IMG/VR virus record: IMGVR_UViG_3300014039_000012
Coordinates: 105,442 to 169,441 of that record
DNA length: 64,000 nucleotides
Strand: one strand, 5' to 3'
Source: a virus
Taxonomy: Duplodnaviria; Caudoviricetes
Part shown: positions 4,365 to 49,355 of the stretch, piece after piece
How the letters are laid out: every line of letters begins with the position of its first letter
Position numbering within the stretch: the first letter of the stretch is position 1
Translations under genes and position numbers: made by a program
Notes under the pieces: model-generated
Databases searched by the model: none
The model's input: only the letters and a program-made list of their open reading frames with translations
Told to the model about the DNA's origin: nothing

Positions 4365-5315
4365 TTCAATTCTGCGCACGCATATTGTATGGCAATAGAT
4401 AGTCTTTCTTGTGCAATGCTGAAAGCAAATTATCCATATGAATTTTATGAGGTGCTTCTACAATTCCATTCCGATAGAGGAGAAAAAGACAAGGTTGGAG
4501 CCCTAAAAGCGGAAATGAAAAAAGCTTTTAGTATTCAAGAAGGTCCGTATCGATTTGGAGAAGATAACCGCAAATTCAACGCAATTCCGGAAAGAGGAAT
4601 TATCCAACCGTCTCTTTTGTCAATTAAGGGACTGAGCCAAGATTTGGCAAATGATCTTTATGAACTTTCGCAAACTAAAAAGTTTGATAATTTTATAGAT
4701 CTGTTAAGAGAATTCGATCATATGAAATCGATGAACATTGCGAAGTTGGATACGTTGATTAAACTCAACTATTTCTCTCAATTCGCCCCCATCGGAAAAC
4801 TTCTGAACATCGTTGAACTCTATAACAAGTTCGGAACTCGTAAGACACTCAAAGAATCCGACGTTTCCGCCCTCCCCGCGCCCGTTCAGGAAGTTATCGC
4901 AAAATATACCACCAAGCCCAAAACGCAGTATAAAATCACGGATAACGATGGAATGCTTCGTGAGCTTGCAGAAATGGTCGGAGAACGTCCGATTACAATG
5001 ATGATGCGTTTGTCGTGGGAAAAGGATTATTTGGGTTACTGCGCCTCTACCGATCCGTCACAGCAAGGAAGTTGGCTCGTTCTGGATATCGATACGAAGT
5101 TCTCTCCGAAGTTGAGCATATATTCTATCTGGAGTGGAGAACAGCGTATCGTTAAAGTCTCGAAGCGTGACTTCCAATCAAATCCTCTCGCTAAAGGTGA
5201 TACAATCCGTCTCACCATTGAACAACGTCCGAAGACAAAGCTCGTGGACGGACAATGGGTAAAAGACGAAAGCGTTAAAGAAGATTGGCTAAAATATTAT
5301 TCAATTGTAAAATAA
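4365..5315 (+). CDS. dnaE: DnaE exon 3 (HhH and C-terminal region)
   Basis: FNSAHAY...LKANYPYEFY...SIKGL. The spliced precursor is 1534 aa, or 1095 aa after intein removal. Confidence 0.92.
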   Translation, partial: FNSAHAYCMAIDSLSCAMLKANYPYEFYEVLLQFHSDRGEKDKVGALKAEMKKAFSIQEGPYRFGEDNRKFNAIPERGIIQPSLLSIKGLSQDLANDLYELSQTKKFDNFIDLLREFDHMKSMNIAKLDTLIKLNYFSQFAPIGKLLNIVELYNKFGTRKTLKESDVSALPAPVQEVIAKYTTKPKTQYKITDNDGMLRELAEMVGERPITMMMRLSWEKDYLGYCASTDPSQQGSWLVLDIDTKFSPKLSIYSIWSGEQRIVKVSKRDFQSNPLAKGDTIRLTIEQRPKTKLVDGQWVKDESVKEDWLKYYSIVK

Positions 5316-18486: not shown

Positions 18487-20154
18487 ATGTTATCAGATAT
18501 CGAAATTGCACAGAAAACAAAACCGAAGCACATTAAAGATGTTGCTAAAACTGCTGGAGTTCCTGAAAAATATATTGAGCAGTATGGCAATTATAAGGCA
18601 AAAATCGACTTAAAATTCCTTGAAAAATCAAAAAAGAAAAATGGAAAACTAATCCTTGTGACCGCAATGACGCCAACTCCTGCCGGCGAGGGCAAGACAA
18701 CTACGACAGTTGGGCTTGCCGACGGGTTGCGCAAGATTGGTAAAAAATCTATCGTCGCCCTGCGCGAGCCGTCTCTTGGTCCGGTATTTGGAGTAAAAGG
18801 TGGGGCTTGTGGCGGCGGCTACGCGCAGGTCATCCCGATGGAGGACATCAATCTGCACTTCACCGGAGATTTCCACGCTATCGGTGCGGCAAACAACCTG
18901 CTTGCGGCAATGTTGGATAATCATATAAAGCAGGGAAACGAACTTGGAATCGATCCGCAAAAAATTACTTGGAAACGGTGCGTCGATATGAATGATCGAC
19001 AATTGCGTAATATTGTCGATGGGCTTGGCGGAAACACGAATGGCGTAACGAGAGAAGATGGATTCGATATCACGGTAGCCTCGGAAATTATGGCGGTATT
19101 TTGTCTTGCAAATTCGCTCGAAGATTTGAAGAACCGGCTTGGGAAAATCATCGTCGGATATACTTATAACGACGAACCTATAACCGCGAACGATCTTCGA
19201 GCAACAGGAGCGATGACGGCGTTGTTGAAAGACGCCATTAAGCCAAATCTCGTTCAAACGCTCGAAGGAACTCCGGCGCTCGTTCACGGCGGACCATTCG
19301 CGAATATTGCCCACGGTTGTAATTCAATTCTTGCGACAAAAATGGCATTAAAACTCGGAGATTATGTTGTAACAGAAGCAGGATTCGGTGCTGATTTAGG
19401 GGCTGAAAAGTTCATCGATATTAAATGCCGAACTGCTGGATTTCATCCAAACGCAATTGTTATTGTAGTAACAATTCGCGCACTTAAAATGCACGGAGGA
19501 GTTGCAAAAGCTGATTTGGACAAGGAAAACCTCGAAGCTATAGAAATAGGCATCGAAAATTTGATTCAGCACGTTAGCAATATTCACAGAACTTATGTTC
19601 CATATGTTGTGGCAATCAACAGATTTGCAACAGACACAAACGAAGAAGTCGAATTTTTGAAGAAATTGTGTAGCGATCGAGATATTAATGTTGTCGTTTG
19701 TGATTCTTGGGCAAAAGGCGGAAAAGGAGCAGAAGATCTCGCAAAGGAAGTCGTTCGGTTGTGCGAAGAAGATTCGTCCGATTTTACGTATTTGTATCAC
19801 ACAGAAGATTCAATCGAAAAAAAGATTAAAACCGTGGTGGAAGATGTTTATTGTGGTTCCGATATCAATATTCTTCCTTCGGCAAAAAGACAAATTGAAA
19901 AACTTGAGAGATTCGGATTTGGAAATCTCCCAATTTGTATCGCAAAGACACAATATAGTTTTTCCGATAATCCAACGCTTCTTAATGCTCCAATTGGATT
20001 TACGGTAACAATCAAAAATCTTAAAGTTTGCGCAGGGGCTGGATTCATTGTGGTACTGACAGGAGATATTATGACGATGCCCGGGCTTCCAAAGCATCCT
20101 GCGGCTGAAAATATCGACGTTGACGAAGATGGTAAAATTATTGGATTATTCTAA
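18487..20154 (+). CDS. fhs: Formate-tetrahydrofolate ligase
   Basis: [40 protein letters not shown] and TMPGLP motifs; 555 aa. Confidence 0.97.
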
Positions 20155-20227: not shown

Positions 20228-21343
20228 ATGGTGACCAATTATTTATTAGAATTCATTCAAAACCACCCTAATGATTGGGAAGAAAAATTGTCATCCAACC
20301 CCTACAACCTGAAGATTTCTAGAGACGGTCCGTATGTGATGTTCAAGTATAATCAACTTTCTTCGGACTTCTCCGATCCAATCGTCCGCGAGGCACGTGG
20401 AATCATCTTCCGAGGAGACAATTGGAAGTGCGTTAGACGGGCTTTCGATAAGTTTTTCAATTACGGAGAACCGAACGCGGTGGAGATCGATTGGAATACG
20501 GCGAGGGTTCAGACCAAAGTAGATGGAAGTTTGATTAGCGGGTGGTTTGATGATGGTAAGTGGCATTATTCAACCAATGGAACTATCGATGCCTATAAAG
20601 CTCCGACTGGAGACATCAAGCTTCCAACTTTCGGAGATGTTCTAGAAGAAGCTTTTCGTAACAATGATATTACGAAAGAGAAGTTCGAACAGACGGCTTC
20701 CAGACTCGTTTGCTATACTTTCGAACTCGTCTCCCCACAAACTCGCGTCGTAATTCCATATGAGAAGCCGGATTTGTATTTCATTGGACACCGAGTGATG
20801 CCAACTGAACGTGAAATGAGTCCTGAAGAGTCTATTATTTCCGAGTTTTTCAAGACTCCGAAGGAATACGACTTTCATTCTGCGCAAGACGTTATCAATG
20901 CGGCGAAAGAACTTCCGTGGGACGAAGAGGGTTACGTCGTTGTTGATGACAATTTCAATCGCGTTAAAATCAAATCTCCTGCGTGGCTGGTTGCGCACTA
21001 CGCAAGATCAAATAATTCGATTTCCAAAGAGTCTTTAATTCAGGTGGTTCTCGACGGAGAACAGGAAGAGTTTCTCGTTTATGCCGATGATTATCGCGAA
21101 GAACTCGAATCGGTCGAACAAGAAATGAATGGTTTTATCGAAGAGCTGAGCAAGGCCGCAAGAGAAATGAAGAAAAAATACGCGGCAGAAGTTCTAAAGT
21201 ATCCGAAATCACTTCAACCGTATCTATTTTCAAAGATAACTAATCAAGATGCGGGTGATTGGGTAAAAGAAAATATGACGTCTTTCAAATGGGTGAAATA
21301 CCTGGAAGCAAGAAAGGAGCAAAACAATGGCGAGAAAGAATAA
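20228..21343 (+). CDS. T4 Rnl1-like RNA ligase
   Basis: REARGII, FDKFFN, motif I KVDGS, FELVSP, EGYVV and RVKIKS. Confidence 0.88.
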   Translation: MVTNYLLEFIQNHPNDWEEKLSSNPYNLKISRDGPYVMFKYNQLSSDFSDPIVREARGIIFRGDNWKCVRRAFDKFFNYGEPNAVEIDWNTARVQTKVDGSLISGWFDDGKWHYSTNGTIDAYKAPTGDIKLPTFGDVLEEAFRNNDITKEKFEQTASRLVCYTFELVSPQTRVVIPYEKPDLYFIGHRVMPTEREMSPEESIISEFFKTPKEYDFHSAQDVINAAKELPWDEEGYVVVDDNFNRVKIKSPAWLVAHYARSNNSISKESLIQVVLDGEQEEFLVYADDYREELESVEQEMNGFIEELSKAAREMKKKYAAEVLKYPKSLQPYLFSKITNQDAGDWVKENMTSFKWVKYLEARKEQNNGEKE

Positions 21344-21598: not shown

Positions 21599-22498
21599 AT
21601 GACGAGCGGAATTCCAAAATTGGAAGTTTTGATTGGTCTTCCCGGAAGCGGAAAATCAACTTATGCAAAAGAAGAGCACGAATTAAACAGTAACTCTATT
21701 TATCTCTCTTCCGACAAAATTCGAGAAGAATTGTACGGAGATGAATCGATTCAGGGAAATCCTGCAGAAGTATTTACCTTAATGCAGAGTCGTGCGATTG
21801 AAGCACTAAAAGAGGGGAAAGATGTCTTTTATGATGCGACCAATTTAACTCGAAAAGATCGCGCTGGAATTCTTGCAACAACTCCAAGATATGTCTATAA
21901 ACAGGCGACCGTGGTTTTTGCTCCGTATGAAATGTGTATTGAAAGAGACGCAGCTCGCGAACGGTCCGTTGGGAAAGAAGTAATCGATAGGATGATTCGA
22001 AGATTTCAACCTCCATTTAATGACGAGGGATTCGATTTCATTGATGTATATCAGAGTTATTCTGACGAAGAATATGAACAATTTGTGAAGAAATATGGAA
22101 GCCTTTTGGAACGTATGATGATTCTTCACGACAACCCCCATCATTCATTGCCTGTTTGGAAACACTGCCAAGAGGCAGAACAATACGCGAAAGAGCATTT
22201 TGCCGACGATCGTTTGTATGACGAACTCGTATCTGCGGCTCGCCTTCACGATTGCGGGAAATATATCGTAAAAGATTATCACGATTCGAAAGGAAATCCA
22301 AGCGCGTGCGCTCATTATTATCAACATCAGTGTACTTCTGCGTGGCAATGTATGGAAGAAACGTTCAACGGATTTGTAATTTGGCTCATTGGTGCTCATA
22401 TGGATCCATTTTTGGACACAAAATACTATCGCAACCTTGATTCGTGGATGAAAAGCGCAATCGATAAACTTCACGAAGCAGATGTTGTAGCACATTAA
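21599..22498 (+). CDS. Polynucleotide kinase (AAA_33) fused to an HD phosphoesterase domain
   Basis: GLPGSGKST, SSD.IR, DATNL; C-terminal HH...H...LHDCGK...HD-type motif. Confidence 0.85.
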   Translation: MTSGIPKLEVLIGLPGSGKSTYAKEEHELNSNSIYLSSDKIREELYGDESIQGNPAEVFTLMQSRAIEALKEGKDVFYDATNLTRKDRAGILATTPRYVYKQATVVFAPYEMCIERDAARERSVGKEVIDRMIRRFQPPFNDEGFDFIDVYQSYSDEEYEQFVKKYGSLLERMMILHDNPHHSLPVWKHCQEAEQYAKEHFADDRLYDELVSAARLHDCGKYIVKDYHDSKGNPSACAHYYQHQCTSAWQCMEETFNGFVIWLIGAHMDPFLDTKYYRNLDSWMKSAIDKLHEADVVAH

Positions 22499-30665: not shown

Positions 30666-31580
30666 ATGGGAACTATTATTAACGGCAAAGAACTTGCCGA
30701 GCGCGAAAACGAACTTACCGCAACAAGAGTTGAAACCCTTGTTAAAAACGGGCACGCGAGACCGAAGCTTGTTGTGATTCAGGCGGGAAATGATCCGGCT
30801 TCTTCGACTTATGTTCGCAACAAGAAAAAAGCTTGCGAGAAAGTCGGTATCTTGTGCGAAGATATTCATATCGATGAAGAAAAAGATCCTGCTCTTACGG
30901 AGATGAGAATTATTGGAGAAATTCAGAAAGCGAACAGAGACGACAATGTCAACGGAATTCTTGTTCAGCTTCCACTTCCAAAGGGGGTTGATGAGGAAAC
31001 CGTCCTTAATTATATCAATATGTTCAAGGACGTCGATGGATTCGGATATTTGAACGCAGGAAAGCTTTTCTCAAAGAAGAATCCCGAGCCTTATGGATTT
31101 ATTCCTTGCACCCCTGCAGGAATTGTTCATATGTTGAATTCGATTTCTGCTCCTAACGGAATTAATTATTCTGGAAAGAATGCAGTTGTTATTGGTCGCT
31201 CCAATATTGTCGGAAAGCCAGTTTCAATTCTTCTTCAGAAGATGAATATGAATGTAACAATGCTTCATTCAAAGACTTCCGAAGAAGATAAACAATTTTA
31301 CTGCCGTCACGCAGACGTGATTGTCGTAGCGACCGGACAGGAAAATACACTTACAGACAGACACTTTTATGGAGACAAGAAGCCGATTATTATCGATGTC
31401 GGGATTCATCGTGGAGAAGATGGGAAACTCCACGGAGATGTCTCAGAAGAGATTAAGGAAAAGTATTCGAGTTATTACAGCCCTTGCCCTGGAGGTTGCG
31501 GTCCTTTAACTGTCTCGATGCTTTTGAAGAATGTTGTTACTTCGGCGGAAAGAAGTTACTTGATTTTTAACAACGATTAA
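30666..31580 (+). CDS. folD: Bifunctional methylene-THF dehydrogenase/cyclohydrolase
   Basis: ASSTYVRNK, GILVQLPLP, KDVDG, PCTP.G, VIGRSNIVGKP, IDVGI and PGG.GPLTV motifs. Confidence 0.96.
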   Translation: MGTIINGKELAERENELTATRVETLVKNGHARPKLVVIQAGNDPASSTYVRNKKKACEKVGILCEDIHIDEEKDPALTEMRIIGEIQKANRDDNVNGILVQLPLPKGVDEETVLNYINMFKDVDGFGYLNAGKLFSKKNPEPYGFIPCTPAGIVHMLNSISAPNGINYSGKNAVVIGRSNIVGKPVSILLQKMNMNVTMLHSKTSEEDKQFYCRHADVIVVATGQENTLTDRHFYGDKKPIIIDVGIHRGEDGKLHGDVSEEIKEKYSSYYSPCPGGCGPLTVSMLLKNVVTSAERSYLIFNND

Positions 31581-34811: not shown

Positions 34812-35673
34812 AATCAGCTAAAACTATAAACTAAATTTATGCCAATTTCTTAAATTAAATAACAAGAATTTTAGGGTATCTTCGGATACCCTATTTCCCA
34901 TATATCCTTCCCCACTTTCTTCCTCAGTCCTTTATTTTAATAGGTAAAACCATCCCTAAAATCGATTCTGAAATCTATTTAATCCCTACTTTTTACTATC
35001 CCTTAATTCGTATGTCTCTTCCCTTGTTTCCCCTCCATTTTCCTCCATTCTTCCCCACTTTTAACCATCCTCTTGTCCTATTGTTGAAAATGTGGAAAAA
35101 CTTGTGGAAAACTTACCAAAAATACTCAATCATATTCAAATATTGTCTAATTATTACCCAAATATCCAAGAAATACCCAGAAAACCCTCTATAGACATCT
35201 TCTATATATAAATCATCAACAGATCATCATATAATTGTGTGATCTAACTCATATATTCTTTCTTAATTATGCGATTAGATTAGAAGGCCGTTGGATATGG
35301 AATTATATTGGTTCTATAGTCTAGTACTAGTATATGGGCTATTATTAAGAAGAACTTATATTAAAGTTGGTTAGATATCAAGTATTGTTATTCTTTCAAG
35401 GATCATATATATTGATCATATATATTTGGGGAACCAAGTTTCCCCACACCCCCTCCTTTGCCCGAAAAGACTTTCAGTCTTTTCTCCTCGTCCCCTCACT
35501 TCGTTCGGGTCGCCGTCCAATCGTTTTTCATTTGTCGAACCTGACGGTTCTCAAATGAATAAACCGACTTCGTCGTAGTATATATTTATTTTTTTAAGGG
35601 AAAGGAAAGGATGTGTATTTATATTTAAAAGGGAATGTATTTGTAAATATTTTGTTAATTATATATAGAGGGA

Positions 35674-35702
35674 TTGACAAGGAGGGGGAAGTGTGGTATA
35701 AT
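35674..35702 (+). promoter_or_regulatory. Sigma-A promoter
   Basis: TTGACA 35674-35679 and TGgTATAAT ending 35702. Confidence 0.8.
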
Positions 35703-35744
35703 AGAGGTGAATAGAAGGAAGTAGAAGGAGGAGGGATTTTTATT

Positions 35745-36449
35745 ATGACTAATATTGAGCGTACTTTTTATAGAGAACTTCACAATCTTGAAGTGGGAGT
35801 TATTTATAAAAACTCAAGGGTGGTTTGTGAACTTTTAAAATTTCCATTTGTTAGTGGAAGTAGTCGAATTGCAGTTATGAAATTATTGGATAAGTATACC
35901 CGATATATTAAAGTTGGACAGAAGTATATTTTTTCTGAAATATATTTAGATAAGATTCCTGTTGAACCGGAGAAAAAAATGATTTTACAAGACGGAGAAA
36001 TTGTTAAACCGTTCCCTGATTGTGATAGATATCTTGTAAGTAATTATGGGAGAATTTGGTCAAAACCAAAAGGGGACTGGGCACATCTTGGAAGTAATCC
36101 TAATGGATATTTGTATTGTAGTATAAGTGGTAAATATTTATCTGTTCATAGAATAGTAGCATTGACTTTTATACCAAACCCGTTAGGGTTGGCAGAAGTT
36201 AATCATAAAGACGAAAATAAGCATAATAATCGTGTAGATAATTTAGAATGGATTTCAAGGAGAGATAATCTTTATTATGGAACTAGAATGGATAGAATAA
36301 AAGCAGGGAGAAATAAGAGGAGAAATAATCCTAATAGATTTAAAGATAGATTCGAAAAGATTGTAAGAGATTGGAAGAATGTCGGTATAAATAGGGAAGA
36401 GATGGAGTTAATGATAAAGGAGATTGTTGATGGGATATTTGAAGAGTAG
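35745..36449 (+). CDS. NUMOD4/HNH endonuclease with an extra N-terminal domain
   Basis: YLVSNYGRI, VHRIVA.TFIPNP and VNHKDENK.NN.VDNLEW motifs. Confidence 0.85.
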   Translation: MTNIERTFYRELHNLEVGVIYKNSRVVCELLKFPFVSGSSRIAVMKLLDKYTRYIKVGQKYIFSEIYLDKIPVEPEKKMILQDGEIVKPFPDCDRYLVSNYGRIWSKPKGDWAHLGSNPNGYLYCSISGKYLSVHRIVALTFIPNPLGLAEVNHKDENKHNNRVDNLEWISRRDNLYYGTRMDRIKAGRNKRRNNPNRFKDRFEKIVRDWKNVGINREEMELMIKEIVDGIFEE

Positions 36450-36709
36450 GATTGGGTGCGAGATTGATAATGAGAGGATAGATAGGTAAACGATTAAGAG
36501 AGATATAGGATAGACGAGATTTTGATATGTTTGATATGATCTTTTCTTTTATAAGAAAAGTAAAAATAAAGTAAAATGTTAAGAATTCCAGAAAATTCCA
36601 AATAAATCACTTTAATTTCAAATAAATTCCAAATTAACTTAAACTAATTCAAACTAATTTCTAACCGCTCCCTTATAAAAATAATCTTAAATAAATTTTT
36701 CAAAACCAC

Positions 36710-36738
36710 TTGACAAATCCGCCCTTTTATGATATAAT
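36710..36738 (+). promoter_or_regulatory. Sigma-A promoter
   Basis: TTGACA 36710-36715 and TGaTATAAT ending 36738. Confidence 0.8.
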
Positions 36739-36769
36739 TATACTGAATAGGTAGAATAGAAACTCAAAA

Positions 36770-37185
36770 TATAATTATGAACAAATTATAAATGTATTTT
36801 CCCTACTTTCCAGTAGAATAGAAAACCCCTCTATAGGAAAATATGGAAAAAATATTTTTTAATATTTAAAAACCCTTTTTGCGCGAAGCGCAGAGACGCT
36901 GGAGTCATAACATAATTTGTTAACATTTACCTATTTTTTAATCAAAAATTATATATATAGGAGGATTGTTAATGTTAACAAATTATGAATGAAAAATGCA
37001 CACTTTTAAAGATTTATTATTATTATTATATTTATATATATACCGTTAAAAAGTGTGCAATCGTTAATATTTTGTTCATAATTTAACCGCTCCCCAAACG
37101 ACGAAATTTCTCACCATAGAATCGTAGATTTCGTGTTAAAAAGTGACAAAACTAAACTATAAATATTATAAAAATTAAAGGAGAA
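36770..37185. other. Putative replication origin region
   Basis: Very AT-rich. Inverted repeat TGCACACTTTT (36997-37007)/AAAAGTGTGCA (37049-37059) flanks an almost pure AT core. Repeated ATAATTTGTT-like boxes and a gcgcgaagcgc hairpin are present. Confidence 0.45.
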
Positions 37186-37189
37186 TTAT

Positions 37190-38449
37190 ATGATAGAAGA
37201 AATTGAGAATAAACAACCTCGAATAACAAATAATCTTGAAACATTTAAAAATTTACAAATTGGTAAAAAATATAGATACGTAGATTTATGTGAAGTTCTC
37301 GAAGAACCGAAATTACGAGGTAAACAAAAAGAGTATCAAATTGCCAGATGGGAGCGGAAATGTAATTTAAACAAAATTGCAAATTCTCCATATTATGAAG
37401 TTAATGAGATTTATGAAAATGAACTCCATCCAATTGAGACAAGGGGAAAGAAAAACGAATATTTAAAATATATTAGAGATATTATAGTTTTATCTTGTTA
37501 TCAAAAAAGAAACACAAAACAAAAAAATGAAGAAAGTGACTACTATCATTTTGAAGCATCAAAAGTAAATTTATATATGTTATTTGGTTTTTTCAATCAA
37601 AAGTTTATTGAGTTTTGTTTTAATTCCGAAAATGAAAAAAATAAAAAGATTCTTGAAAACATAAAAGATAAAAACGCTATTATCAAACAATTTGAAAGTG
37701 AAGTATTTGGAAAATGTTTCGATGTTTTGGATAGTGTTAGAAAGAGATTAAAGAATGAACAATTAATTGACTCTCACGACACAGTAGAAGTGTATCAATT
37801 ATATAGAAATGAAAATACTCATCAATTTTATCCAATAGATACTTGGTATGGAATTTGGAGATCTTTAACAGAAGAAGAACAGACGTATTTGATGGATGTC
37901 AAAAAGAGTATAATGAGGGAAATGGGATGTTCCACCCTTTCCAGTCTATATTATAGAGGGTGGGGAGAGAAATTTAGAAATAAAGTAACACAGATTATAT
38001 ATAGAGAGCGGGGCTGGAAGCTATATAGAGAGTCTGTAAGTTTTTGGATGGTTAAAAGAAATGTAATTGAAGAAGCGGAGGAAATACTAAAGAAATGTGG
38101 ATACGATCCGGATGACGAAGTGGTTCAAGCTAAAGCTTGTGAAATTAATGAAAAAATGATTGGATTCTTAAAAAATAGAACGGACATTAATTTATATGCT
38201 TTAACTCACGCAGCGGCAACAGAAATTATAGAAAAAAGAGAAGAGACTCCATCAAGAGGAACATTTTATAAAACATTAGAAATTTTAATGGAACTATATG
38301 AATTAATCGATGAGCCAAGAGAAAGACAAGATGTCAAAGATCAATTGATGTTTCAGAGCTTTGATAACGAGGCTATTATAGATGAATATAAAAATGTAAG
38401 AGAAATGTTGATTGGAGAATTAATTAAATTGCCATCAGAACAGTTTTAA
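37190..38449 (+). CDS. Hypothetical protein, candidate replication initiator/DNA-binding protein
   Basis: 419 aa ORF with strong SD next to the AT-rich repeat region; its N-terminal domain resembles that of 35745..36449. Confidence 0.5.
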   Translation: MIEEIENKQPRITNNLETFKNLQIGKKYRYVDLCEVLEEPKLRGKQKEYQIARWERKCNLNKIANSPYYEVNEIYENELHPIETRGKKNEYLKYIRDIIVLSCYQKRNTKQKNEESDYYHFEASKVNLYMLFGFFNQKFIEFCFNSENEKNKKILENIKDKNAIIKQFESEVFGKCFDVLDSVRKRLKNEQLIDSHDTVEVYQLYRNENTHQFYPIDTWYGIWRSLTEEEQTYLMDVKKSIMREMGCSTLSSLYYRGWGEKFRNKVTQIIYRERGWKLYRESVSFWMVKRNVIEEAEEILKKCGYDPDDEVVQAKACEINEKMIGFLKNRTDINLYALTHAAATEIIEKREETPSRGTFYKTLEILMELYELIDEPRERQDVKDQLMFQSFDNEAIIDEYKNVREMLIGELIKLPSEQF

Positions 38450-38522
38450 CCGCTCCCGTTTGCCTTCATCTCCCTCCCAAAAAACTTTTTTCAAAAAATC
38501 AGAACTTTTTTCTTAAAACCCC

Positions 38523-38551
38523 TTGACAAAACGGATTTTATGTGCTATAAT
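38523..38551 (+). promoter_or_regulatory. Sigma-A promoter for the ncRNA/tRNA cluster
   Basis: TTGACA 38523-38528 and TGcTATAAT ending 38551. Confidence 0.85.
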
Positions 38552-38676
38552 ATAAGCGTGAAAGGGAGAGAGCATCGGCACACGAGTAGGGAGCGGTTCA
38601 AAGCCTAAGTGATACCCGACACTAACCGCTCCCGAAGGCTCCATCGGACTCTATTTCACTACCTCCTTTCTTAAAG

Positions 38677-38764
38677 AACCGCAGGAACTGCGGGGATAGC
38701 CTGTTGATACTTGAAGAGACTTCATTGAGCAGGAAGCTCACTCCTCTGGGGTTGGGCAGTTCAC
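38677..38764 (+). ncRNA. IS200/IS605 right-end / TnpB omega-RNA-like scaffold without tnpB
   Basis: aaccgcaggaactgcggggatagcctg...caggaagctcactcctctggggttgggcagTTCAC resembles the tnpB 3' scaffold, the subterminal hairpin and the TCAC end. Confidence 0.6.
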
Positions 38765-38888
38765 ATGAACTAGTGGTTTTCATAGTAGACTCCTTTCAAA
38801 TGTGACGCCGGTCTTGGTGGTGCTTGATCGGTATGACAAAGCGGTCGGACGCTTGACAGCTCGGACAGACGGCACCTTTCTAAAACAT

Positions 38889-38979
38889 CCATCGGCAGCT
38901 TAATTGGTTCAAGCCCGCGATCTATAATCGCGAGACCCTCACAAGGCAAGTGGAGGTTCGACCCCTCCCCGATGGACCA
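38889..38979 (+). tRNA. Atypical tRNA, anticodon TAT (Ile), long variable arm, CCA encoded
   Basis: Acceptor CCATCGG/CCGATGG-A-CCA; anticodon stem CGCGA/TCGCG with loop TCTATAA; T arm GGAGG-TTCGACC-CCTCC. Confidence 0.75.
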
Positions 38980-39012
38980 AGCAATTATTTGAAAGGTAAG
39001 TATAAACACAAT

Positions 39013-39564
39013 ATGGATATAATATGGAAAGACATCCCGGGGTATGAAGGGCTCTATCAAGTGAACCAACGGGGAGAGGTATATAGCTTATATACTGGTA
39101 AAATTTTAAAATATAGCTTTTCCACAGATGGGTATAAGCAATATAATCTTTTCAAAGACAAGAAAAGACGGCTTATGATGGCTCATAAAGCGGTTGCGCT
39201 TGCTTTCATTCCAAATCCAGAAAATCTTCCGATGGTTAATCATAAAGATGAAAATAAATCTAATTGCTATTATGAAAACCTTGAATGGTGTAGTTGTTTA
39301 TATAACAACACATATAATGGGACTCATATTAAAAGGTCTGTTAAAAATTGTCTTACGACATTTCAATATAATGAATGCGGGGAATTAATTAGGATTTACT
39401 CTTCTGCAAAAGAGGCCGCAAAAGAAAACGGATTTACAGATAGTTGTATTAGCTCTTGTTGTACTGGAAATTTGTATACATATAAAAAATATGTATGGTC
39501 GCATTCAAAATTATCTAAAGAAGAAATTTTTGAAAAATTTCGTAAATCTAAACAAATTCAATAA
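39013..39564 (+). CDS. NUMOD4-HNH-NUMOD1 homing endonuclease
   Basis: WKDIPGYEGLYQV, HKAVA.AFIPNP, VNHKDENK.N...NLEW and a C-terminal NUMOD1-like region. Confidence 0.9.
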   Translation: MDIIWKDIPGYEGLYQVNQRGEVYSLYTGKILKYSFSTDGYKQYNLFKDKKRRLMMAHKAVALAFIPNPENLPMVNHKDENKSNCYYENLEWCSCLYNNTYNGTHIKRSVKNCLTTFQYNECGELIRIYSSAKEAAKENGFTDSCISSCCTGNLYTYKKYVWSHSKLSKEEIFEKFRKSKQIQ

Positions 39565-39582
39565 TCAAAGGAGTAATTCCAA

Positions 39583-39759
39583 ATGTTACCAATTATCGTA
39601 GCATCAGTCCTGTCTCTCCTCGCAGTCGGATTCATCGTTTGGTTCTGGACACGGACTCCGAGCAATCTTACCAAGTGGTATTGTATTCCGGTTACAATCT
39701 TTGGAGTGGCGGCAGTTATCGCGCTTTGGTTCTTTGCGGTAATTCTTCCAATTCTCTGA
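39583..39759 (+). CDS. Small membrane protein (58 aa, two hydrophobic segments)
   Basis: SD aaggag; MLPIIVASVLSLLAVGFIVWFW...IFGVAAVIALWFFAVILPIL; below the ORF-track size cutoff. Confidence 0.6.
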   Translation: MLPIIVASVLSLLAVGFIVWFWTRTPSNLTKWYCIPVTIFGVAAVIALWFFAVILPIL

Positions 39760-39794
39760 CCGAGATGACAGTCGGGAAAGACCGACGTCCATAT

Positions 39795-39876
39795 GGACCT
39801 GTGGCGAAATTGGCAAACGCATTCGACTTAAGATCGAGTACCTCCGGGTTTAAGAGTTCAAATCTCTTCAGGTCTA
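39795..39876 (+). tRNA. tRNA-Leu(TAA)
   Basis: Acceptor GGACCTG/CAGGTCT; D arm GGCGAAATTGGCAAACGC; anticodon loop CTTAAGA; variable arm; T loop TTCAAAT. Confidence 0.9.
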
Positions 39877-40118
39877 CGCTGGATTGTTCTTGAATAGGAT
39901 TTTATCCGTTAGCTCGCAACTAATGTCCGGCACCAAGACGCTTGATTGGCAGAATTCCTTAGTCTCTAAATAGTAATGGAAGCGCCCGACTCCCACGGAA
40001 GAGCGGAGCTCCCTCACAGAGGAACAGAAATCCGTCGCTGTGTTGTATATGTGACCGACGTTGACTGAATCGTCTCGTAAAAATTTCAGTGACAGTCTGG
40101 AGAGACAGACATTCATAT

Positions 40119-40194
40119 GGATGCGTAGCCCAGAGGAAGAGGCAAACGGCTCAAACCCGTTGTAGGGAATGTTCGAATCATTTCGCATCCACCA
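40119..40194 (+). tRNA. tRNA with anticodon CAA (Leu) and a short variable loop, CCA encoded
   Basis: Acceptor GGATGCG/CGCATCC-A-CCA; anticodon stem AACGG/CCGTT with loop CTCAAAC; T loop TTCGAAT. Confidence 0.85.
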
Positions 40195-40466
40195 GCCGCC
40201 AATGATGGAGATGCGTATAACTCACGCCATTCAGACTAAGTCAAGCTGGGCGCGTTAAAACTGTTTAATCCGTGCCTTGGATAATTCTTCCAGTCGGTTC
40301 TTACATCAGATAATTTCGCCAAAGCAACCGATTCTTCTATCCCCTTCAGATGGCGTGCAGTCCCGTTCGAGTCGGGCGAGGGGAATCAGGTCTGCTCCCA
40401 GACAGTACACAGGGAGCGAGAGTAAGCCCTCGTCAAGGCGAAGTTTATGGGTTAGCTTGAAACCCT

Positions 40467-40541
40467 GCCGCAAGCGTGATGAAGGAGTCTAACATCCAAT
40501 AGCGCGTTGGTATCATTGGTTCGAATCCAATCGTTGCGGTT
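40467..40541 (+). ncRNA. tRNA-like element / pseudo-tRNA
   Basis: Terminal stem GCCGCAA/TTGCGGT and a perfect T arm ATTGG-TTCGAAT-CCAAT, but no canonical anticodon loop or CCA. Confidence 0.5.
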
Positions 40542-40987
40542 CTTCGGGCAAGAGAAGTAAAACCTTGCCAAGAGGCGAAGCGGAACGCCGAAAACACCAA
40601 CCGAAAAACTGTCTTGTTCGATCGCCTTTCCGATGAAGCATTAGATGAATGATGCTTGCGGTGAAACGGGTTAAACTCCCGGCTTCGGGCTGGCTTAATC
40701 GGCAAGATAAACCGCTCCCTCGACGCGGGATGTTCCCCGTCAAAATATGTGAAATTCATAGCTTAGCCCGTTATAGTCGGAAAGTATTCATAGGTATTCC
40801 TCCGCCTATCGCACCCCAGAAATGGACACGCGGAAAAGAGAGGAAAATCGCCGACCCACCAAGCGTGGGAACGGTTCCTGTAGCCGTCTAATTGCGGTTA
40901 CTGCTGATAGCAGTCTGATCAACTGCTAAAATTCGGTGCCACCGATGAGGGGTTAAATGGACGCGATAGCCGTTACAGCCGAAACAT

Positions 40988-41063
40988 TGTCGAGTAACCA
41001 AGTGGTAAGGTAACTGGTTTTGACCCAGTCATTGCGCAGGTTCGAATCCTGCCTCGACAGCCA
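40988..41063 (+). tRNA. tRNA-Gln(TTG), CCA encoded
   Basis: Acceptor TGTCGAG/CTCGACA-G-CCA; anticodon stem ACTGG/CCAGT with loop TTTTGAC; T arm GCAGG-TTCGAAT-CCTGC. Confidence 0.93.
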
Positions 41064-41187
41064 GCGGATGCTATTCCGCTAAACCTCCAATAATTTATAT
41101 GGGCACCCGCCTCTATTAGGTCCGATAATTGAGTCGGAAACCGATGAGACGGGTTGTTCCGCATCTAAAGAAAGGAAACCGCTCCCA

Positions 41188-41667
41188 ATGAGCATCACTC
41201 TCAACGTCAACGTAAACCTTCCAATATATAACAAGACTCCAACCTATAAACCGCTCCCGCAATTAACTCGTCGTCAGCGGTCATTTTTCGAGTCTGCTAA
41301 AGCAGTATCTATTCTCTCTGATCATCCACAGTTTCATTTAGGTTGTGTTATCGTAGAAGGTTCTCGTATCATCTCATCAGGATGTAATTCAATCACACGA
41401 TGCTCTCCTATTCAGCAGAAGCTCGACCACAATCGGTTCGGCGGAGAACATAGAGGAGTGTGTCACGCAGAAACATCTGCCTTGCTTCCGCTCATTCGTC
41501 AGAGACTGGATTTAACCTCTTGTACCGCGTATCTGTACCGCTCCCATAAAGATGGCTCTCTTGCCATTTCTCGCCCTTGTAGCGGCTGTATGAGCCTCCT
41601 GCGAGCCGCTGGCATTCGGCGAGTCTTCTTCACGGTTGAAGGCGGATATGCGGTAGAAGACATTTAG
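41188..41667 (+). CDS. Zn-dependent cytidine/dCMP deaminase family protein
   Basis: HAE and PCxxC motifs; LGCVI...IISSGCN. Confidence 0.85.
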   Translation: MSITLNVNVNLPIYNKTPTYKPLPQLTRRQRSFFESAKAVSILSDHPQFHLGCVIVEGSRIISSGCNSITRCSPIQQKLDHNRFGGEHRGVCHAETSALLPLIRQRLDLTSCTAYLYRSHKDGSLAISRPCSGCMSLLRAAGIRRVFFTVEGGYAVEDI

Positions 41668-41765
41668 GGAGCGGTTCATATCATCAGGTGATTAGACAAC
41701 CTACCCAAAACAGGTTATCTTCACATATATTAACAAATTATTAACAAGAAAGGGGGGGACTTAAT

Positions 41766-42356
41766 ATGCCTCGTAAAAATAAAAGTATATCTTTCGATGA
41801 AATGATTAATGAAATACCTTTTGAAGAAAAATGGTCATATATTTCTGGAACAAACGATTCTTATATTATAGTTTCAAATGGGGATGTTTATTCTAGTATT
41901 ACAAATATGGGAAAAACAAATCGTTGGCATAGATTAGAACACAGATTATCTCGATATGGTTATCATCGCGTAACTATAAAGATAAATAACAAAAGAATAG
42001 ATCGATATATTCATAGGTTAGTTTTAGAAACCTTTTGTCCAATTGAAAATATGGAAAATTATGATTGTGCCCATCTTGACGATAATAAAGATAACAATAG
42101 TTTAAATAATTTAAGATGGATGACTCGTTTTGAGAATAATCATTGGAATGACAAAATTGAAAGAGGCGCATCAAAAAGAAGAATTCCCGTTTTTCAATAT
42201 GATTTAGACGGAAACTATATAGCGTCTTTTGAAGGATTGAGAAGAGCAGAGGACGCAACTGGATTCGATCATTCAAAAATATCTAATTGCGCAAAAGGGA
42301 AAAGAAAAGAATATAAAGGGTTTATTTGGTCTTTTATAGGACCTGATAATAAATAA
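41766..42356 (+). CDS. HNH endonuclease with NUMOD1-like C-terminus
   Basis: IHRLVLETF, AHLDDNKDNN.LNNLRW and QYDLDG...ISNCAKG motifs. Confidence 0.88.
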   Translation: MPRKNKSISFDEMINEIPFEEKWSYISGTNDSYIIVSNGDVYSSITNMGKTNRWHRLEHRLSRYGYHRVTIKINNKRIDRYIHRLVLETFCPIENMENYDCAHLDDNKDNNSLNNLRWMTRFENNHWNDKIERGASKRRIPVFQYDLDGNYIASFEGLRRAEDATGFDHSKISNCAKGKRKEYKGFIWSFIGPDNK

Positions 42357-42378
42357 AATATTTTATGGAGATGAATTT

Positions 42379-43224
42379 ATGAAAGAAATTGAAAGAACCC
42401 CGTTGAGCAGCAAGGCATTAATTGAAATGAAAGACTGTTTCCTAAAATGTCTTAAAGCAGAGTATATTCACGTTGATAATGACGGCGATTATGCTTTTGA
42501 AGAATCGAGAGATGGAAAAACGTTGTATCTTTTGTTCCAATGGACCAGAACAGCATATGACTGGATTAGTAATTTTGATTTTGTTGCTAAACCGTACAAA
42601 GATATGGAAATTACTTGGAGATGTCACAGAGGATTTTTAAGAGTTTGGAAATCGATTGAGCCGCACATTAAAGAATTGGTAAAAAATGAAAAGTACAAAG
42701 CTATTAAAATTGCGGGATTTTCACACGGCGCTGCTATCGCAACACTTGCTCACGAGTATGTTTGGTTCAACCGTCCCGACCTCCGCAGTGAAGAGAATCC
42801 CGAAGGAATCACAGGTTATGGATTCGGTTGTCCGAGATGTTATTTCGGTTCTCTCCTCCCGTGGAAGAAGATGCCGCAGGAGCTCGCACAGCGTTGGGAG
42901 CGGTTCTACCCCATCCGCAATATCTCCGACCTCGTAACACACGTCCCACCCCGCATTTTCGGGTTCAGACACGTTGCTCCAGTCGTTCAGTTGGGCAAGA
43001 CTGGCAAGTGGCAGATTATCGATTATGCTCCCAACCTTCCTCCAAGAGTAGCAATGCACTACGCCCCAAATTATATTCTCTCTCTTGATGATGGAATTAA
43101 GGAAGCGCAGGAACTCGAAGCCTACCAGAAGGCAGTCGAGAAGGCAAACGCCCGTGCCGCAAAGAAAGCTGCTGCCACCAAAGCAAAGGCTGAAACGGGG
43201 AGCGGTTCAAAGGAGGAGAAGTGA
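42379..43224 (+). CDS. Class 3 lipase-like alpha/beta hydrolase
   Basis: DW.SN, HRGF, GFSHG nucleophile elbow, FG.PR and DLVTHVPP motifs. Confidence 0.85.
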   Translation: MKEIERTPLSSKALIEMKDCFLKCLKAEYIHVDNDGDYAFEESRDGKTLYLLFQWTRTAYDWISNFDFVAKPYKDMEITWRCHRGFLRVWKSIEPHIKELVKNEKYKAIKIAGFSHGAAIATLAHEYVWFNRPDLRSEENPEGITGYGFGCPRCYFGSLLPWKKMPQELAQRWERFYPIRNISDLVTHVPPRIFGFRHVAPVVQLGKTGKWQIIDYAPNLPPRVAMHYAPNYILSLDDGIKEAQELEAYQKAVEKANARAAKKAAATKAKAETGSGSKEEK

Positions 43225-43691
43225 TGGCAGAGGTAATTAATAATAAGAATAATTCTAATTCTAACACAACTTCTACCCTTTCCGCAATTCTTGCCGCCCC
43301 CATTGATTTCTTCTACTCTCACATTGAAGAAATGTCTCTTTTCGGAGTAACTTCCGACGAGTCCGAGACAATCATTATTACCCGCAGAGAATCTCCTGAA
43401 GCAACAATCACGACCTCCGATTCCACAATGTTCACAAAGATTCGAAAGAATATTATCGCAGATCCGGAACATAAGGACTGGAAGGTTCAAGCCGTTACTC
43501 GTGCAAGTTCCGACAATAACCAATTTCATTTCATCGAGATTCAAGTGGCCTGCCCCAAGAAGCTAATTTCTCTCCGCTCCAAAACAACCACGAAGGAGCT
43601 GACAGACGAGCAGAAAGAAGCAATGCGGGAGCGGATGTCCAAGATGTGGAAGAATAGAGGAAATTCCGCAGAAACAGAAGACGAGGATTAA
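43221..43691 (+). CDS. Hypothetical protein
   Basis: ORF overlaps the upstream stop; C-terminal ELTDEQKEAMRERM helix. Confidence 0.6.
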   Translation: MMAEVINNKNNSNSNTTSTLSAILAAPIDFFYSHIEEMSLFGVTSDESETIIITRRESPEATITTSDSTMFTKIRKNIIADPEHKDWKVQAVTRASSDNNQFHFIEIQVACPKKLISLRSKTTTKELTDEQKEAMRERMSKMWKNRGNSAETEDED

Positions 43692-44053
43692 GTTCCTAAT
43701 CTATTGTTCGGGAGCGGTTCTATTGTTCCGCACATTGTTCCGATAAAGGTTCTTCAACGGTCTATAAACCGCTCCCACGTGCGGCAGAAAAATAATGCCG
43801 CTCCCCGTTAAAAGACACCCCTGATTTTCTAATAAAACAATAAGCCAGAAAATAAAGTTTCAAAGGGCTATCGGTACTCGCCGAAAACCAACTTTAAAAA
43901 TTTCGTCCTATTTTAATCGAGAGAGTCGGGGTAAAATCGGCACTCAAACTATATTGGTGCCGAAGCACTGAAATAGCAACTAAAATTAAGCCCAAATAAG
44001 GGCAAAAATAAAACTAAAAACAATTCTAAATTCCAATAAGGAGATGCTTTTAA

Positions 44054-44800
44054 ATGAAATATTACAGCGATATTACCAACGAACTTTATGAAACCCGCGA
44101 ACAGCTTTTCAAGGCAGAGCGCGATTACAAAACCGAACTTCTCGAAAAGGCTCGCGCGGACGAGAAAGCGAAGAAGATTGCGGATCTCGAAGCACAGCTC
44201 GCAGAACTTCGCGGAGAGACGACCACAAAGAAGGCTGATGCCAAACCCTCCGACTCTTCCGATGTTTATACGGGAGCGGTTAAAGAAGATAGCCCCGAAA
44301 AAGACAGCCCCGCTCCCACGAAGGTTTATGATGCGGGAAGAGAAGGTAAGATTGATTATTCCAAGACCGTCGAAGAGATCAAGAAGCTAATCAACAATTT
44401 CAAGTTTAAGTATCCGAGTTTTGAGTTTCAGGATGTTGAAGACGAAGATGAAAAGGACGAACTGACGGCCGACGATATTAAGGAAGATACAATGTCCTCC
44501 GCTCCCAAGATGAATATTAAAGCCGTTCCTCGTCCCGGAGCAAAAACTACTCGCCCCGCTACAGAAAAGACCGCTCCCGCAAAGACAAATAGCTCGTGCG
44601 GTGGTTGTGGTAAGAAGTGCGTTAAGAACTCCGACACTGATGGAGACAAGGTGCGGAGCAAACTCGCAGATTCTGGATATTATTCCTCCGCATATGTTAA
44701 CCTGAACGGTAAGGAGTTTTACTCCGAGGGAGCGGATTCGTGGAATGACGTTAAGAAGGCTGTTCGGGAATATTTTGATAAGCTTCAGGGACTGAAGTGA
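44054..44800 (+). CDS. Hypothetical protein, low-complexity centre
   Basis: SD aaggag; last + strand gene before the terminator. Confidence 0.65.
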   Translation: MKYYSDITNELYETREQLFKAERDYKTELLEKARADEKAKKIADLEAQLAELRGETTTKKADAKPSDSSDVYTGAVKEDSPEKDSPAPTKVYDAGREGKIDYSKTVEEIKKLINNFKFKYPSFEFQDVEDEDEKDELTADDIKEDTMSSAPKMNIKAVPRPGAKTTRPATEKTAPAKTNSSCGGCGKKCVKNSDTDGDKVRSKLADSGYYSSAYVNLNGKEFYSEGADSWNDVKKAVREYFDKLQGLK

Positions 44801-44841
44801 GGATGGACTGATTAAGTAAGTTTACAAATAATTTACAATTT

Positions 44842-44871
44842 AGGAGTGGTCTGGAGACTGCTCCTTTTTTT
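44842..44871 (+). terminator. Intrinsic terminator ending the + strand block
   Basis: aggagtggtc-tgga-gactgctcct followed by a T run. Confidence 0.8.
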
Positions 44872-45260
44872 GTTGGGCAAGTAATTTTTGGACGAAGTTC
44901 TAATAAAATAGGCGGCTGCTCAACCATTTTAAAGGGGCGGTTCTATGGGTTAGGGGCGGGTGGGGTTAAAAGCGGGGCGGCCGCCGGAAAGAAAAAAATT
45001 CCCCGCCTAATTAAAAAAGTGGCTCGGGAATATAATTAGCCCTCGCGTATGGTTTGTTTTAGTGTCCGATTAAAGACACAAGGAAGCCTTGGGGTTCGCT
45101 CCCTTTAAACTATTCTATACCCATCCCATCCACCCACAGTCATAACTCAACAGTCTACCAAACCCATTACAACACAAGAACTCTTCGAAACACAAATCCC
45201 GTTGAAGCACGGTTTTCTTTACTTGCGGATAACCGTAAACCCAATTGTTCTTACCTCATT

Positions 45261-47203: not shown

Positions 47204-47737
47204 TTACTCCTTCGGTTTTGCAATTACCCATGTTTTATTATGTAAAATTGATTGTATAGTTGTTGCTCCAACTCCATATTTTCTTGCCAATGCTCTTCCA
47301 CCAAAGATTGGATCTCTTGGAATGTATGTTTCCAATATATCATTCACATCTTGTCTTGTTAATTTGTGGCTACCATTTTTTTCCCCATAACTTATACCAT
47401 TGGGAAGTTTCAAACCTGTATCAAACGCATGCTTAATGTTTTGAGACTTCGTTACCCATTCAAGATTTTCAACAAAATTATTTTCCTTATTTCCATCTTT
47501 GTGGTTAATTTCAGGAAATCCATTCGGATTTTCAATAAAAGCCATCGCAACAAGTCTATGAACCTTAAAATTTTTCATTGTTCCATTTTTACAAAGTTTA
47601 ACATTCATATATCCATATCTGTCTTTATCAAGATGTAGTATTTTCTCGTTTTTACTTTTCAGTGATTTAATTTGTCCAAAATTTGATACCTGATATTCTT
47701 CATATCCACCTTCTATTTGTTTCCATATTTCTTCCAT
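47204..47737 (-). CDS. NUMOD4-HNH endonuclease
   Basis: EIWKQI.G...YQVSNFG, VHRLVAMAF and INHKDGNKENN.VENLEW motifs. Confidence 0.9.
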   Translation of the reverse strand: MEEIWKQIEGGYEEYQVSNFGQIKSLKSKNEKILHLDKDRYGYMNVKLCKNGTMKNFKVHRLVAMAFIENPNGFPEINHKDGNKENNFVENLEWVTKSQNIKHAFDTGLKLPNGISYGEKNGSHKLTRQDVNDILETYIPRDPIFGGRALARKYGVGATTIQSILHNKTWVIAKPKE

Positions 47738-48422: not shown

Positions 48423-49355
48423 TTAGTACGGATAACTTTTAAATGCTTCGTCTTTGTCGTGTTGTATATCGTTACTTAAATCTCTAAATCGTGTATATTT
48501 CTTGTTCGGGTTTATTTTGAAAAACGAAAGCAAATCGCTATAATACCATTCCGACATCGACTCGGAACAATAATGTTCAAGGACTTCTTTTTCATCAATT
48601 GGTTCTTCGCAATGTTCTTGAACAATCTTCAACATATTATCTTCTTCGGTCTTTTGTTTTTCTCTTGAACGTTTTGATCTTTCTTCTTCTTTAGCCTGTT
48701 CTACTTCGTGCTTCCAATATTCGTATTTTTCTCTGTCGTCAATAATAGAGGAGATTTGTTCTTTAGACAATCCTGTGATCTTTTGAATCTCCGGATATTT
48801 TGTTCTTTTTCGATATAGTTGAACGACCTTGATCTTTATCTCTGCGGTAGCAGGGGGAGAAACCGCGCCAGCGGTCTGGGAAGGTTCGTCAGAACCACCC
48901 CTCTCGATCTCTGTCTCCTTCTCCTTCTCTCTATCTTTATCTATATCTTTTTCTTTATCTATATCATGGTTTTGACCCTTTTGACCCATTTTATTATATC
49001 GTTTTAAAGCGCATCGAATTGAGTCTTCTGTCAACCCCATTTTAGAAGCGATATCTTTAATCGAATCTCCATTTTCTTTCAGGCGATAAATCTCATCATA
49101 ATCCAATTCTTTTGGTCGTCCGCCCTTCTTTCCAGCTTCAACCGCTTTTCGATATTTCTCTTGTGCGGATTGAACATTCGGAAGACAACTGCCTTTTATC
49201 CAGCCAAGAATTAAGTCATTTTCTGTTTTGATTTCTCCTCGAATCGATAAATATACTAACGCATAAATCGCTTCTTTAGCGAAATCAGTTCCCATCATTT
49301 TCTCAAACGCATCAATTGTTTCGAGCCAGCTCTCGTAAAATACCATATTTGCCAT
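48423..49355 (-). CDS. DUF6291-like N-terminal domain plus HTH; replication-protein-like
   Basis: MVFYESW...AGKKGGRP, an HTH-like SIKDIASKMG segment and a DIDKEKDIDKD linker. Confidence 0.55.
   Translation of the reverse strand: MANMVFYESWLETIDAFEKMMGTDFAKEAIYALVYLSIRGEIKTENDLILGWIKGSCLPNVQSAQEKYRKAVEAGKKGGRPKELDYDEIYRLKENGDSIKDIASKMGLTEDSIRCALKRYNKMGQKGQNHDIDKEKDIDKDREKEKETEIERGGSDEPSQTAGAVSPPATAEIKIKVVQLYRKRTKYPEIQKITGLSKEQISSIIDDREKYEYWKHEVEQAKEEERSKRSREKQKTEEDNMLKIVQEHCEEPIDEKEVLEHYCSESMSEWYYSDLLSFFKINPNKKYTRFRDLSNDIQHDKDEAFKSYPY

Follow-up and report, generated by a model that had tools for sequence, protein, structure and literature searches.

A dense, two-stranded field of a Chi-like octamer in a candidate long terminal repeat of a Caudoviricetes genome

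Why is a single short word crowded, on both strands, into one 8-kb segment of a phage genome and nearly missing from the rest? This question is raised by the IMG/VR virus record IMGVR_UViG_3300014039_000012 (Caudoviricetes; 169,441 bp), whose last 64 kb (64,000 nucleotides, positions 105,442 to 169,441) were analysed here as the window. The octamer GGGAGCGG recurs between window positions 36665 and 44735, a segment of 8.07 kb referred to below as the zone. Positions are those of the window unless genome positions are stated. A preliminary description, made from the sequence alone, had proposed that the octamers are Chi-like signals for AddAB lying in a long terminal repeat (LTR) at about 35–45 kb. 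Our analysis makes it fairly probable that the 8-kb field is a host AddAB-type Chi-like array inside a phage LTR that extends from about 35498 to 45000. By analogy with other phages, the octamer most likely serves to protect the genome ends and to direct recombination, as a signal to the AddAB of the host. The field is most likely a further case of an arrangement that is already known, a Chi-type array in a phage terminal repeat, here with an octamer so far undescribed.

An exact search identified 24 copies of GGGAGCGG in the window, compared with 0.67 expected and a maximum of no more than 4 over 100 shuffles. These 24 are all the copies in the 169,441-bp record, with none in the remaining 105 kb. 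Of them, 22 fall in the zone (2.7 per kb), and the two outside it are located at 18413 and 63185. The dinucleotide composition of the zone predicts 0.11 copies (P about 1e-42), and the octamer is the top-ranked word in a genome-wide scan for localised k-mers. The counts given in the preliminary description (22 in 8.1 kb and two elsewhere), its chance expectation of far less than one copy and its claim of a cluster rather than a uniform genome-wide abundance are all borne out. The zone sites are divided between the plus (10) and minus (12) strands, are irregularly spaced (29 to 2086 bp apart) and include two close inverted pairs, 38589/38626 (a hairpin) and 44272/44310. The individual copies of GGGAGCGG are as follows, with their retention in an alignment of five genomes.

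36665..36672, minus strand: spacer, in window-specific DNA
37087..37094, minus strand: spacer
37350..37357, plus strand: within the 419-aa open reading frame (ORF), where it reads W-E-R
38450..38457, minus strand: abuts the stop codon of the 419-aa ORF; kept in 5/5
38589..38596, plus strand: 5' arm of the conserved hairpin; kept in 5/5
38626..38633, minus strand: 3' arm of the conserved hairpin; kept in 5/5
40712..40719, minus strand: between transfer RNA (tRNA) genes
41179..41186, minus strand: after the ribosome-binding site of the dCMP deaminase gene and before its ATG
41251..41258, minus strand: within the dCMP deaminase gene; kept in 5/5
41538..41545, minus strand: within the dCMP deaminase gene; in 3/5 (turnover)
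41667..41674, plus strand: overlaps the deaminase stop codon; kept in 5/5
42896..42903, plus strand: within the lipase gene (W-E-R); in 2/5
43198..43205, plus strand: at the end of the lipase gene and immediately 5' of the following ribosome-binding site; kept in 5/5
43627..43634, plus strand: within the 156-aa ORF (R-E-R); kept in 5/5
43710..43717, plus strand: spacer, window-specific
43769..43776, minus strand: spacer, window-specific
43798..43805, minus strand: spacer; in 3/5
44272..44279, plus strand: within the 248-aa ORF, window-specific
44310..44317, minus strand: within the 248-aa ORF; kept in 5/5
44499..44506, minus strand: within the 248-aa ORF, window-specific
44571..44578, minus strand: within the 248-aa ORF; kept in 5/5
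44728..44735, plus strand: within the 248-aa ORF (E-G-A-D); kept in 5/5

Eleven sites lie wholly within five coding sequences (the 419-aa ORF, the dCMP deaminase, the lipase, the 156-aa ORF and the 248-aa ORF), and the others are in spacers or touch start or stop codons. Because the sites occur in spacers and, as had been noted before, in five coding sequences in differing frames, the signal is considered to act at the DNA level. Chi arrays are over-represented in coding and non-coding DNA alike, and the same is seen here, with 22 copies against 0.11 and half of them inside genes. Three other leads were dropped. A second motif, TGCGG, was suspected to be enriched in the zone, and its enrichment is mild and mostly tracks G+C content. 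The resemblance of GGAGCGG followed by U to a tRNA 5' end was set aside because no site overlaps a tRNA gene. A reading of GAGCGG as a BsrBI-type restriction target was also discarded, since a phage would not accumulate restriction targets.

Recognition of the octamer looks strict and enzyme-like. The zone contains 22 exact copies versus 8 one-mismatch variants, at least two of which are decayed orthologous sites. Fourteen of the 22 copies extend to GGGAGCGGTT and 16 to GGGAGCGGT, the sole flank preference being T at the next two bases. No further flank consensus, dyad or second half-site was found within 20 bases of the 94 distinct sites in five genomes. The strict word, the lack of a dyad, the irregular spacing and the presence of sites on both strands of one-directional operons do not match operators, stoperators or iterons. 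The stoperators of Cluster A mycobacteriophages are 13 bp long, occur genome-wide, are oriented with transcription and are bound by the phage repressor. They resemble the present sites in being many copies of a short asymmetric site, some of them within genes, but the octamers keep to 8 kb and occur on both strands of operons transcribed in one direction. DNA uptake sequences (DUS/USS), which are dispersed genome-wide at about 1 per kb and are frequent in the host, do not fit either, with sites limited to 8 kb of 169 kb and the octamer abundant in none of the 401 genomes scanned, all from one phylum.

The same field was identified in 18 related contigs, four from IMG/VR and 14 from human-gut metagenomes, making 19 with this phage. 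Each contains 11 to 24 octamers within about 7–8.5 kb, on both strands. Assembler depth tags in the names of related contigs reach 175x, and ERZ1034917 and ERZ1034897 are among the related metagenome contig records. The four whole IMG/VR records, whose proteins are 56–84% identical to those of the window, have no more than three octamers outside the field. An IMG/VR scan for the inverted pair with TT/AA returned, besides these four relatives, only isolated pairs or dispersed copies and no dense field. In the five-genome alignment, 12 of 37 site columns are common to all five genomes, others were gained or lost, and lineage-specific insertions bring their own octamer copies. The sites of the window are retained in relatives at 85–93%, compared with 23–24% for all 8-mers in the same alignment (P 2e-8 to 2e-6), indicating that the word is under purifying selection as DNA and that the number of sites is maintained. 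Strand use across the five genomes is near 50:50 and random in order. The preliminary description had correctly counted eight of ten sites on the minus strand left of 41.6 kb and seven of 12 on the plus strand right of it, and had built an orientation argument on this polarity. This argument is not borne out across relatives: the difference falls short of significance in the window (Fisher p=0.10), and none is left when the 37 site columns are counted (9 plus and 11 minus versus 9 plus and 8 minus, p=0.75).

The conservation also bears on whether the field is a by-product, either of a segment acquired from a word-rich donor genome or of a recombination-prone boundary repeat that spreads with gene cassettes. 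The G+C content of the zone is somewhat above that of its surroundings, insertions specific to single lineages come with copies of their own, and several sites are at gene boundaries, all of which would fit such an origin. Against it are the purifying selection on sites in place, the many sites deep in coding sequences, the phage-like nature of the genes, and a density of 2.7 per kb that exceeds that of any of the 401 genomes scanned. We give this explanation hardly any credence.

GGGAGCGG ends in AGCGG, and its last seven bases differ by one base from GAAGCGG. These are the Chi sequences of Bacillus subtilis (AGCGG) and Staphylococcus aureus (GAAGCGG) (bioRxiv 10.1101/2021.07.08.451572). Two cultured Firmicute phages with known LTRs were therefore examined. 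In Staphylococcus phage K (Kayvirus; KF766114.1), GAAGCGG occurs 20 times (13 plus, 7 minus) in the annotated 8,486-bp LTR and is absent from the 131-kb unique region; it is the top localised 7-mer of that genome, and 14 of the 20 copies extend to GAAGCGGT. In Bacillus phage SPO1 (NC_011421.1, positions 1–50000), the 13.2-kb terminal redundancy contains 24 copies of GAGCGG (15 plus, 9 minus) and the 36.8 kb that follow contain two, while AGCGG itself has a density of 3.5 per kb inside the repeat versus 1.1 per kb outside it in the first 50 kb of the record. The confinement of GAGCGG suggests that the effective B. subtilis signal is possibly longer than AGCGG.

The three phage-host systems are thus alike in confining a strict AGCGG-core word, on both strands, to one 8–13-kb segment. 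In the two cultured ones the terminal repeat forms this segment, and the word either equals the host Chi or includes it. The likeness to phage K goes further. Both phages crowd the word into a single plus-strand segment (8.5 kb in phage K, with no copy elsewhere), both show a 3' T preference, and both carry a homing endonuclease gene in the segment. The LTR of phage K also has sigma-A consensus promoters and a terminator end, and next to it lies a leftward early block that includes tRNAs (PMC6445280). Unlike here, where both points are deduced, the repeat of phage K is known from read coverage and its word is the Chi of the host as defined experimentally, with a rolling-circle plasmid assay for high-molecular-weight DNA. 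Phage K is also not a close relative: the TerL matches to cultured phages are remote, and the present phage has a tape-measure ORF of 2,410 aa. SPO1 shares the concentration in its repeat, on both strands, of GAGCGG, which is contained in GGGAGCGG and itself contains AGCGG, but its word is a hexamer and its repeat holds host-takeover genes on both strands. No report of the Chi-in-repeat arrangement of K and SPO1 in the Herelleviridae was found in the literature searched.

Phages of RecBCD hosts (Escherichia coli, Pseudomonas) offer a wider comparison. In P1, LLS and MD8, the host Chi is far above chance and concentrated where the packaged DNA ends, and in P1 it occurs in both orientations near the terminally redundant region, with RecBCD required for circularisation (PMC12315714; bioRxiv 10.1101/2021.07.08.451572). 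The sites of LLS and MD8, unlike the present ones, are almost all in one orientation (20/23 and 32/32) and spread over a larger share of the genome. Those phages also lack a recombination module of their own, whereas a Sak4-like protein and an exonuclease are encoded here.

The location of the field in the genome was then compared with that of known LTRs. Between about 9 kb and 150 kb of the genome, genes are directed rightward, and from about 151 kb via the contig end to about 8.9 kb they are directed leftward. The zone is accordingly the last rightward unit and faces a leftward block of small early genes, beyond which the rightward block starts, at a divergent junction, with the terminase and portal genes. 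LTRs of the SPO1/Twort type occupy this position, where the rightward block gives way to the leftward early genes, and have host-type early promoters. The candidate repeat and its left edge are as follows.

35498..45000, no strand assigned: candidate long terminal repeat of about 9.5 kb, holding all 22 clustered sites
35440..35560, plus strand: nearly invariant block round the putative left terminus at 35497/8, after a terminator-like hairpin at 35465-35485

Two contigs from different assemblies, L071 (OIWU01006638.1) and L076 (ERZ1034855.272), start no more than 1 nt apart at 35497/8. L071 is 7,219 bp long and spans the zone alone, from 35498 to about 45000; in relatives, which are without three homing endonuclease genes described below, the candidate LTR is about 7.2 kb. 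The block at the left edge is unique in the genome and almost identical in 9/9 spanning contigs, in which the surrounding DNA is 72–80% identical, and the coincident starts, rather than falling on a variable junction, are located within conserved sequence at a depth of 83 nt. The 'DTR' (direct terminal repeat) flags on relatives correspond to assembly overlaps of 47–185 bp.

From these analogies we infer three things: the zone is physically repeated, the host has GGGAGCGG as its Chi, and the octamer acts on AddAB. The virion DNA would be linear, with the zone segment at both ends. After injection, AddAB would load on either end and degrade inwards. The strand distribution, 10 plus and 12 minus with no consistent polarity, suits a segment present at both ends: with about ten sites per orientation in the repeat, AddAB entering from either side would meet correctly oriented sites within the first kilobases. 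If recognition were about 30% per site, an assumed value like that of E. coli, it would reach about 97% over ten sites. At such a site, AddAB would stop degrading and make a RecA-loaded 3' tail within the repeat. The genome would be spared, and recombination between the two repeat copies would be favoured, leading to circles or concatemers. A further proposal of the preliminary description, that the field limits the uptake of CRISPR spacers, is speculation.

Several observations weigh against this interpretation. A Chi-like frequency of the octamer was found in none of the 401 sampled genomes, which belong to one phylum and probably do not include the true host. The right edge of the candidate repeat is approximate, since no second contig supports a boundary at about 45000: the end of L071 is in a palindromic stretch, and another related contig, L066, diverges there. 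Long contigs cross both edges, which fits a collapsed repeat and fits no repeat equally well. We infer the Chi role of the K and SPO1 arrays themselves from their sequences. The phage encodes a Sak4-like annealing protein, an exonuclease and a RecD-like helicase, and among lambdoid phages Chi-rich genomes tend to be without modules of this sort (PMC12315714). The zone holds tRNAs, a dCMP deaminase and a lipase, not only small takeover genes. Finally, phage genome G414, a relative that is still fairly close though further off than those with the field (TerL 72% identical), has a single octamer copy, and a k-mer scan found no comparable localised G+C-rich word in it. Taken together, the earlier interpretation is partly supported. 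Its central idea, a Chi-like AddAB signal in an LTR, gained strong indirect support from the K and SPO1 arrays, the LTR-like position, the coincident contig starts and the contig that covers the zone alone, and the orientation argument is the part that relatives do not bear out.

The zone genes comprise four tRNAs, a dCMP deaminase, a class-3 lipase and three ORFs without a family match, in which no DNA-binding domain was detected with Pfam and PHROGs. Of three free-standing HNH/NUMOD homing endonuclease genes in or adjoining the zone, two lie between the outermost sites; no relative has any of the three, and they are therefore regarded as recent insertions. Including a fourth paralogue, none of these genes carries a copy of the motif. 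Their coordinates, and those of the transcription signals, are as follows.

35745-36449: HNH/NUMOD homing endonuclease gene
38950-39564: HNH/NUMOD homing endonuclease gene, paralogue
41766-42356: HNH/NUMOD homing endonuclease gene, paralogue
47204-47737: HNH/NUMOD homing endonuclease gene, paralogue
35674..35702, plus strand: perfect promoter, TTGACA-N17-TGnTATAAT
36710..36738, plus strand: perfect sigma-A-type promoter, with the first motif site 38 bp upstream of its -35 box
38523..38551, plus strand: perfect sigma-A-type promoter, driving the small-RNA and tRNA unit
44842..44865, plus strand: strong intrinsic terminator, closing transcription of the zone and conserved in relatives

This layout is relevant to a second explanation, in which the octamers are sites for a sequence-specific DNA-binding protein encoded by the clade and occupancy, not orientation, matters. 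Such a protein could silence or time the two transcription units, build a replication or partition complex, or form one that stops injection or marks the terminus. In extent, the field corresponds to the stretch that begins with promoter 36710 and ends with terminator 44842; one site precedes a -35 box by 38 bp and another lies shortly downstream of promoter 38523. A helix-turn-helix protein is encoded 3.7 kb away (48423-49355). The field is clade-specific and absent from G414, which is also without homologues of most ORFs of at least 60 aa from about 27 kb of the window to the contig end, and the balanced, randomly ordered strands would be expected if orientation is irrelevant. Ordinary regulators, however, tolerate degenerate sites, in conflict with the ratio of 22 exact to 8 one-mismatch copies, and neither a dyad nor a second half-site accompanies a word that lies within coding sequences in half of its occurrences. 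The AGCGG core and the parallels with the host Chi in K and SPO1 would also be left unexplained. We therefore regard a phage-encoded binder as unlikely.

A region of about 115 nt directly 3' of promoter 38523 (38558-38672) is almost invariant in four aligned genomes. Its core consists of a 10-bp hairpin formed by two motif copies, followed by ACCTCCTTTCT, which resembles the 3' end of 16S ribosomal RNA. This region probably encodes a small RNA. Shuffled sequence folds no worse than the hairpin region does (z = -1.2), and a search with the 16-mer of the hairpin RNA loop gave matches in the same clade only. A second block, 38777-38883, just before the tRNA-Ile gene, is 92% identical in all relatives against a background of about 78%; neither ARAGORN nor Rfam made a call in it, and it may be another structured RNA.

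The hairpin raises a third explanation, that the motif acts in RNA. The transcribed forms GGGAGCGGUU and AACCGCUCCC would base-pair, either with one another or with the hairpin RNA arms (38589-38633), creating RNase III sites or regulating mRNAs. The field does match two plus-strand transcription units and holds 10 plus and 12 minus copies that could pair, with the promoter-proximal hairpin almost invariant in four genomes and a second inverted pair at 44272/44310. For most copies, however, the nearest partner is hundreds of bases away, G-U-compatible forms are not what the near-variants show, and site 36665 is upstream of promoter 36710. Together with the unremarkable fold of the hairpin region and the occurrence of the same fields, with the host Chi, in K and SPO1, this renders an RNA-level role very improbable. 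A Chi-like array in an LTR remains our preferred interpretation.

The host was approached through the phage genes. TerL has only remote matches, to Bacillus, Clostridium and Thomasclavelia phages, and no cultured phage was hit in a megablast search with the zone. NrdD shares 60% identity with that of the metagenome-assembled genome 'Bacillales bacterium UBA6449', a genome without the TerL of the phage, and the FTHFS protein points to Bacillota only. The phage encodes a formate-tetrahydrofolate ligase (18487-20154; 913 bits to PF01268), a FolD-like enzyme (30666-31580) and an anaerobic ribonucleotide reductase (genome 83901-86363), and these host-like metabolic genes point to an anaerobic Bacillota host. 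Among the 401 genomes scanned, the highest octamer count is in G271, with 119 copies in 2.5 Mb versus 49 for the reversed-word control, and with a replichore skew.

Two other lineages contain the octamer or related words. Among the matches listed in a looser IMG/VR scan was one unrelated 41.5-kb phage, G416 (GC 54%, 123-bp end repeat), whose first 7.3 kb contain 19 of its 20 GGGAGCGG copies. The copies form part of longer repeats (the promoter-like ATTCATTTTGGGAGCGGG, and GGGAGCGGGTTTAAATGA) and of perfect hairpins, which are probably promoters and terminators of an early region. G416 was judged a different thing and was not taken as support for a Chi array. The sister lineage L078 (L112-L114), a human-gut phage of about 110 kb, has entries in 105 blocks of the assembly collection. 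In it, AAGCGG/GCGGTT shows a 4–5 fold enrichment over at least 30 kb, on both strands and not confined to one zone, and AGAAGCGG occurs 13 times versus 1.2 expected; the region surrounds a 12-tRNA cluster and a lipase homologue. The enrichment is suggestive of a related signal and ambiguous.

Other features of the genome were also recorded. An RNA ligase and a polynucleotide kinase gene are close together (20228-21343 and 21599-22498); they correspond to the tRNA-repair pair of T4, and this phage also has its own tRNAs. The DNA polymerase is distributed over three ORFs (129-2729, 3030-4142 and 4362-5315) that match successive parts of one PHROG profile, and further homing endonuclease genes are located in the replication region (genome 95385-96995 and 101026-102852).

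The comparison with K and SPO1 suggests a wider rule, which we put forward tentatively as quite possible though a little short of probable: large virulent Firmicute phages with LTRs (K, SPO1 and uncultured gut lineages) generally fill the repeat with the AddAB Chi of their host on both strands and exclude it elsewhere. If the rule is true, the repeat is a Chi cassette, from which the Chi of an unknown host (GGGAGCGG here) could be read in a metagenomic phage. Termini could then be marked without reads, and phages could be matched to hosts by Chi. K and SPO1 seem to obey the same rule, making it cheap to test in laboratory strains. The finding bears on repeat recombination to circles or concatemers, on the places in injected DNA from which CRISPR spacers come, and on the prediction of hosts and termini from metagenomes. 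If our interpretation of the window is correct, it yields a predicted Chi octamer of an uncultured human-gut Firmicute and a probable genome terminus for an abundant group of gut phages, and it would account for the survival of linear phage DNA in Gram-positive hosts in the face of AddAB.

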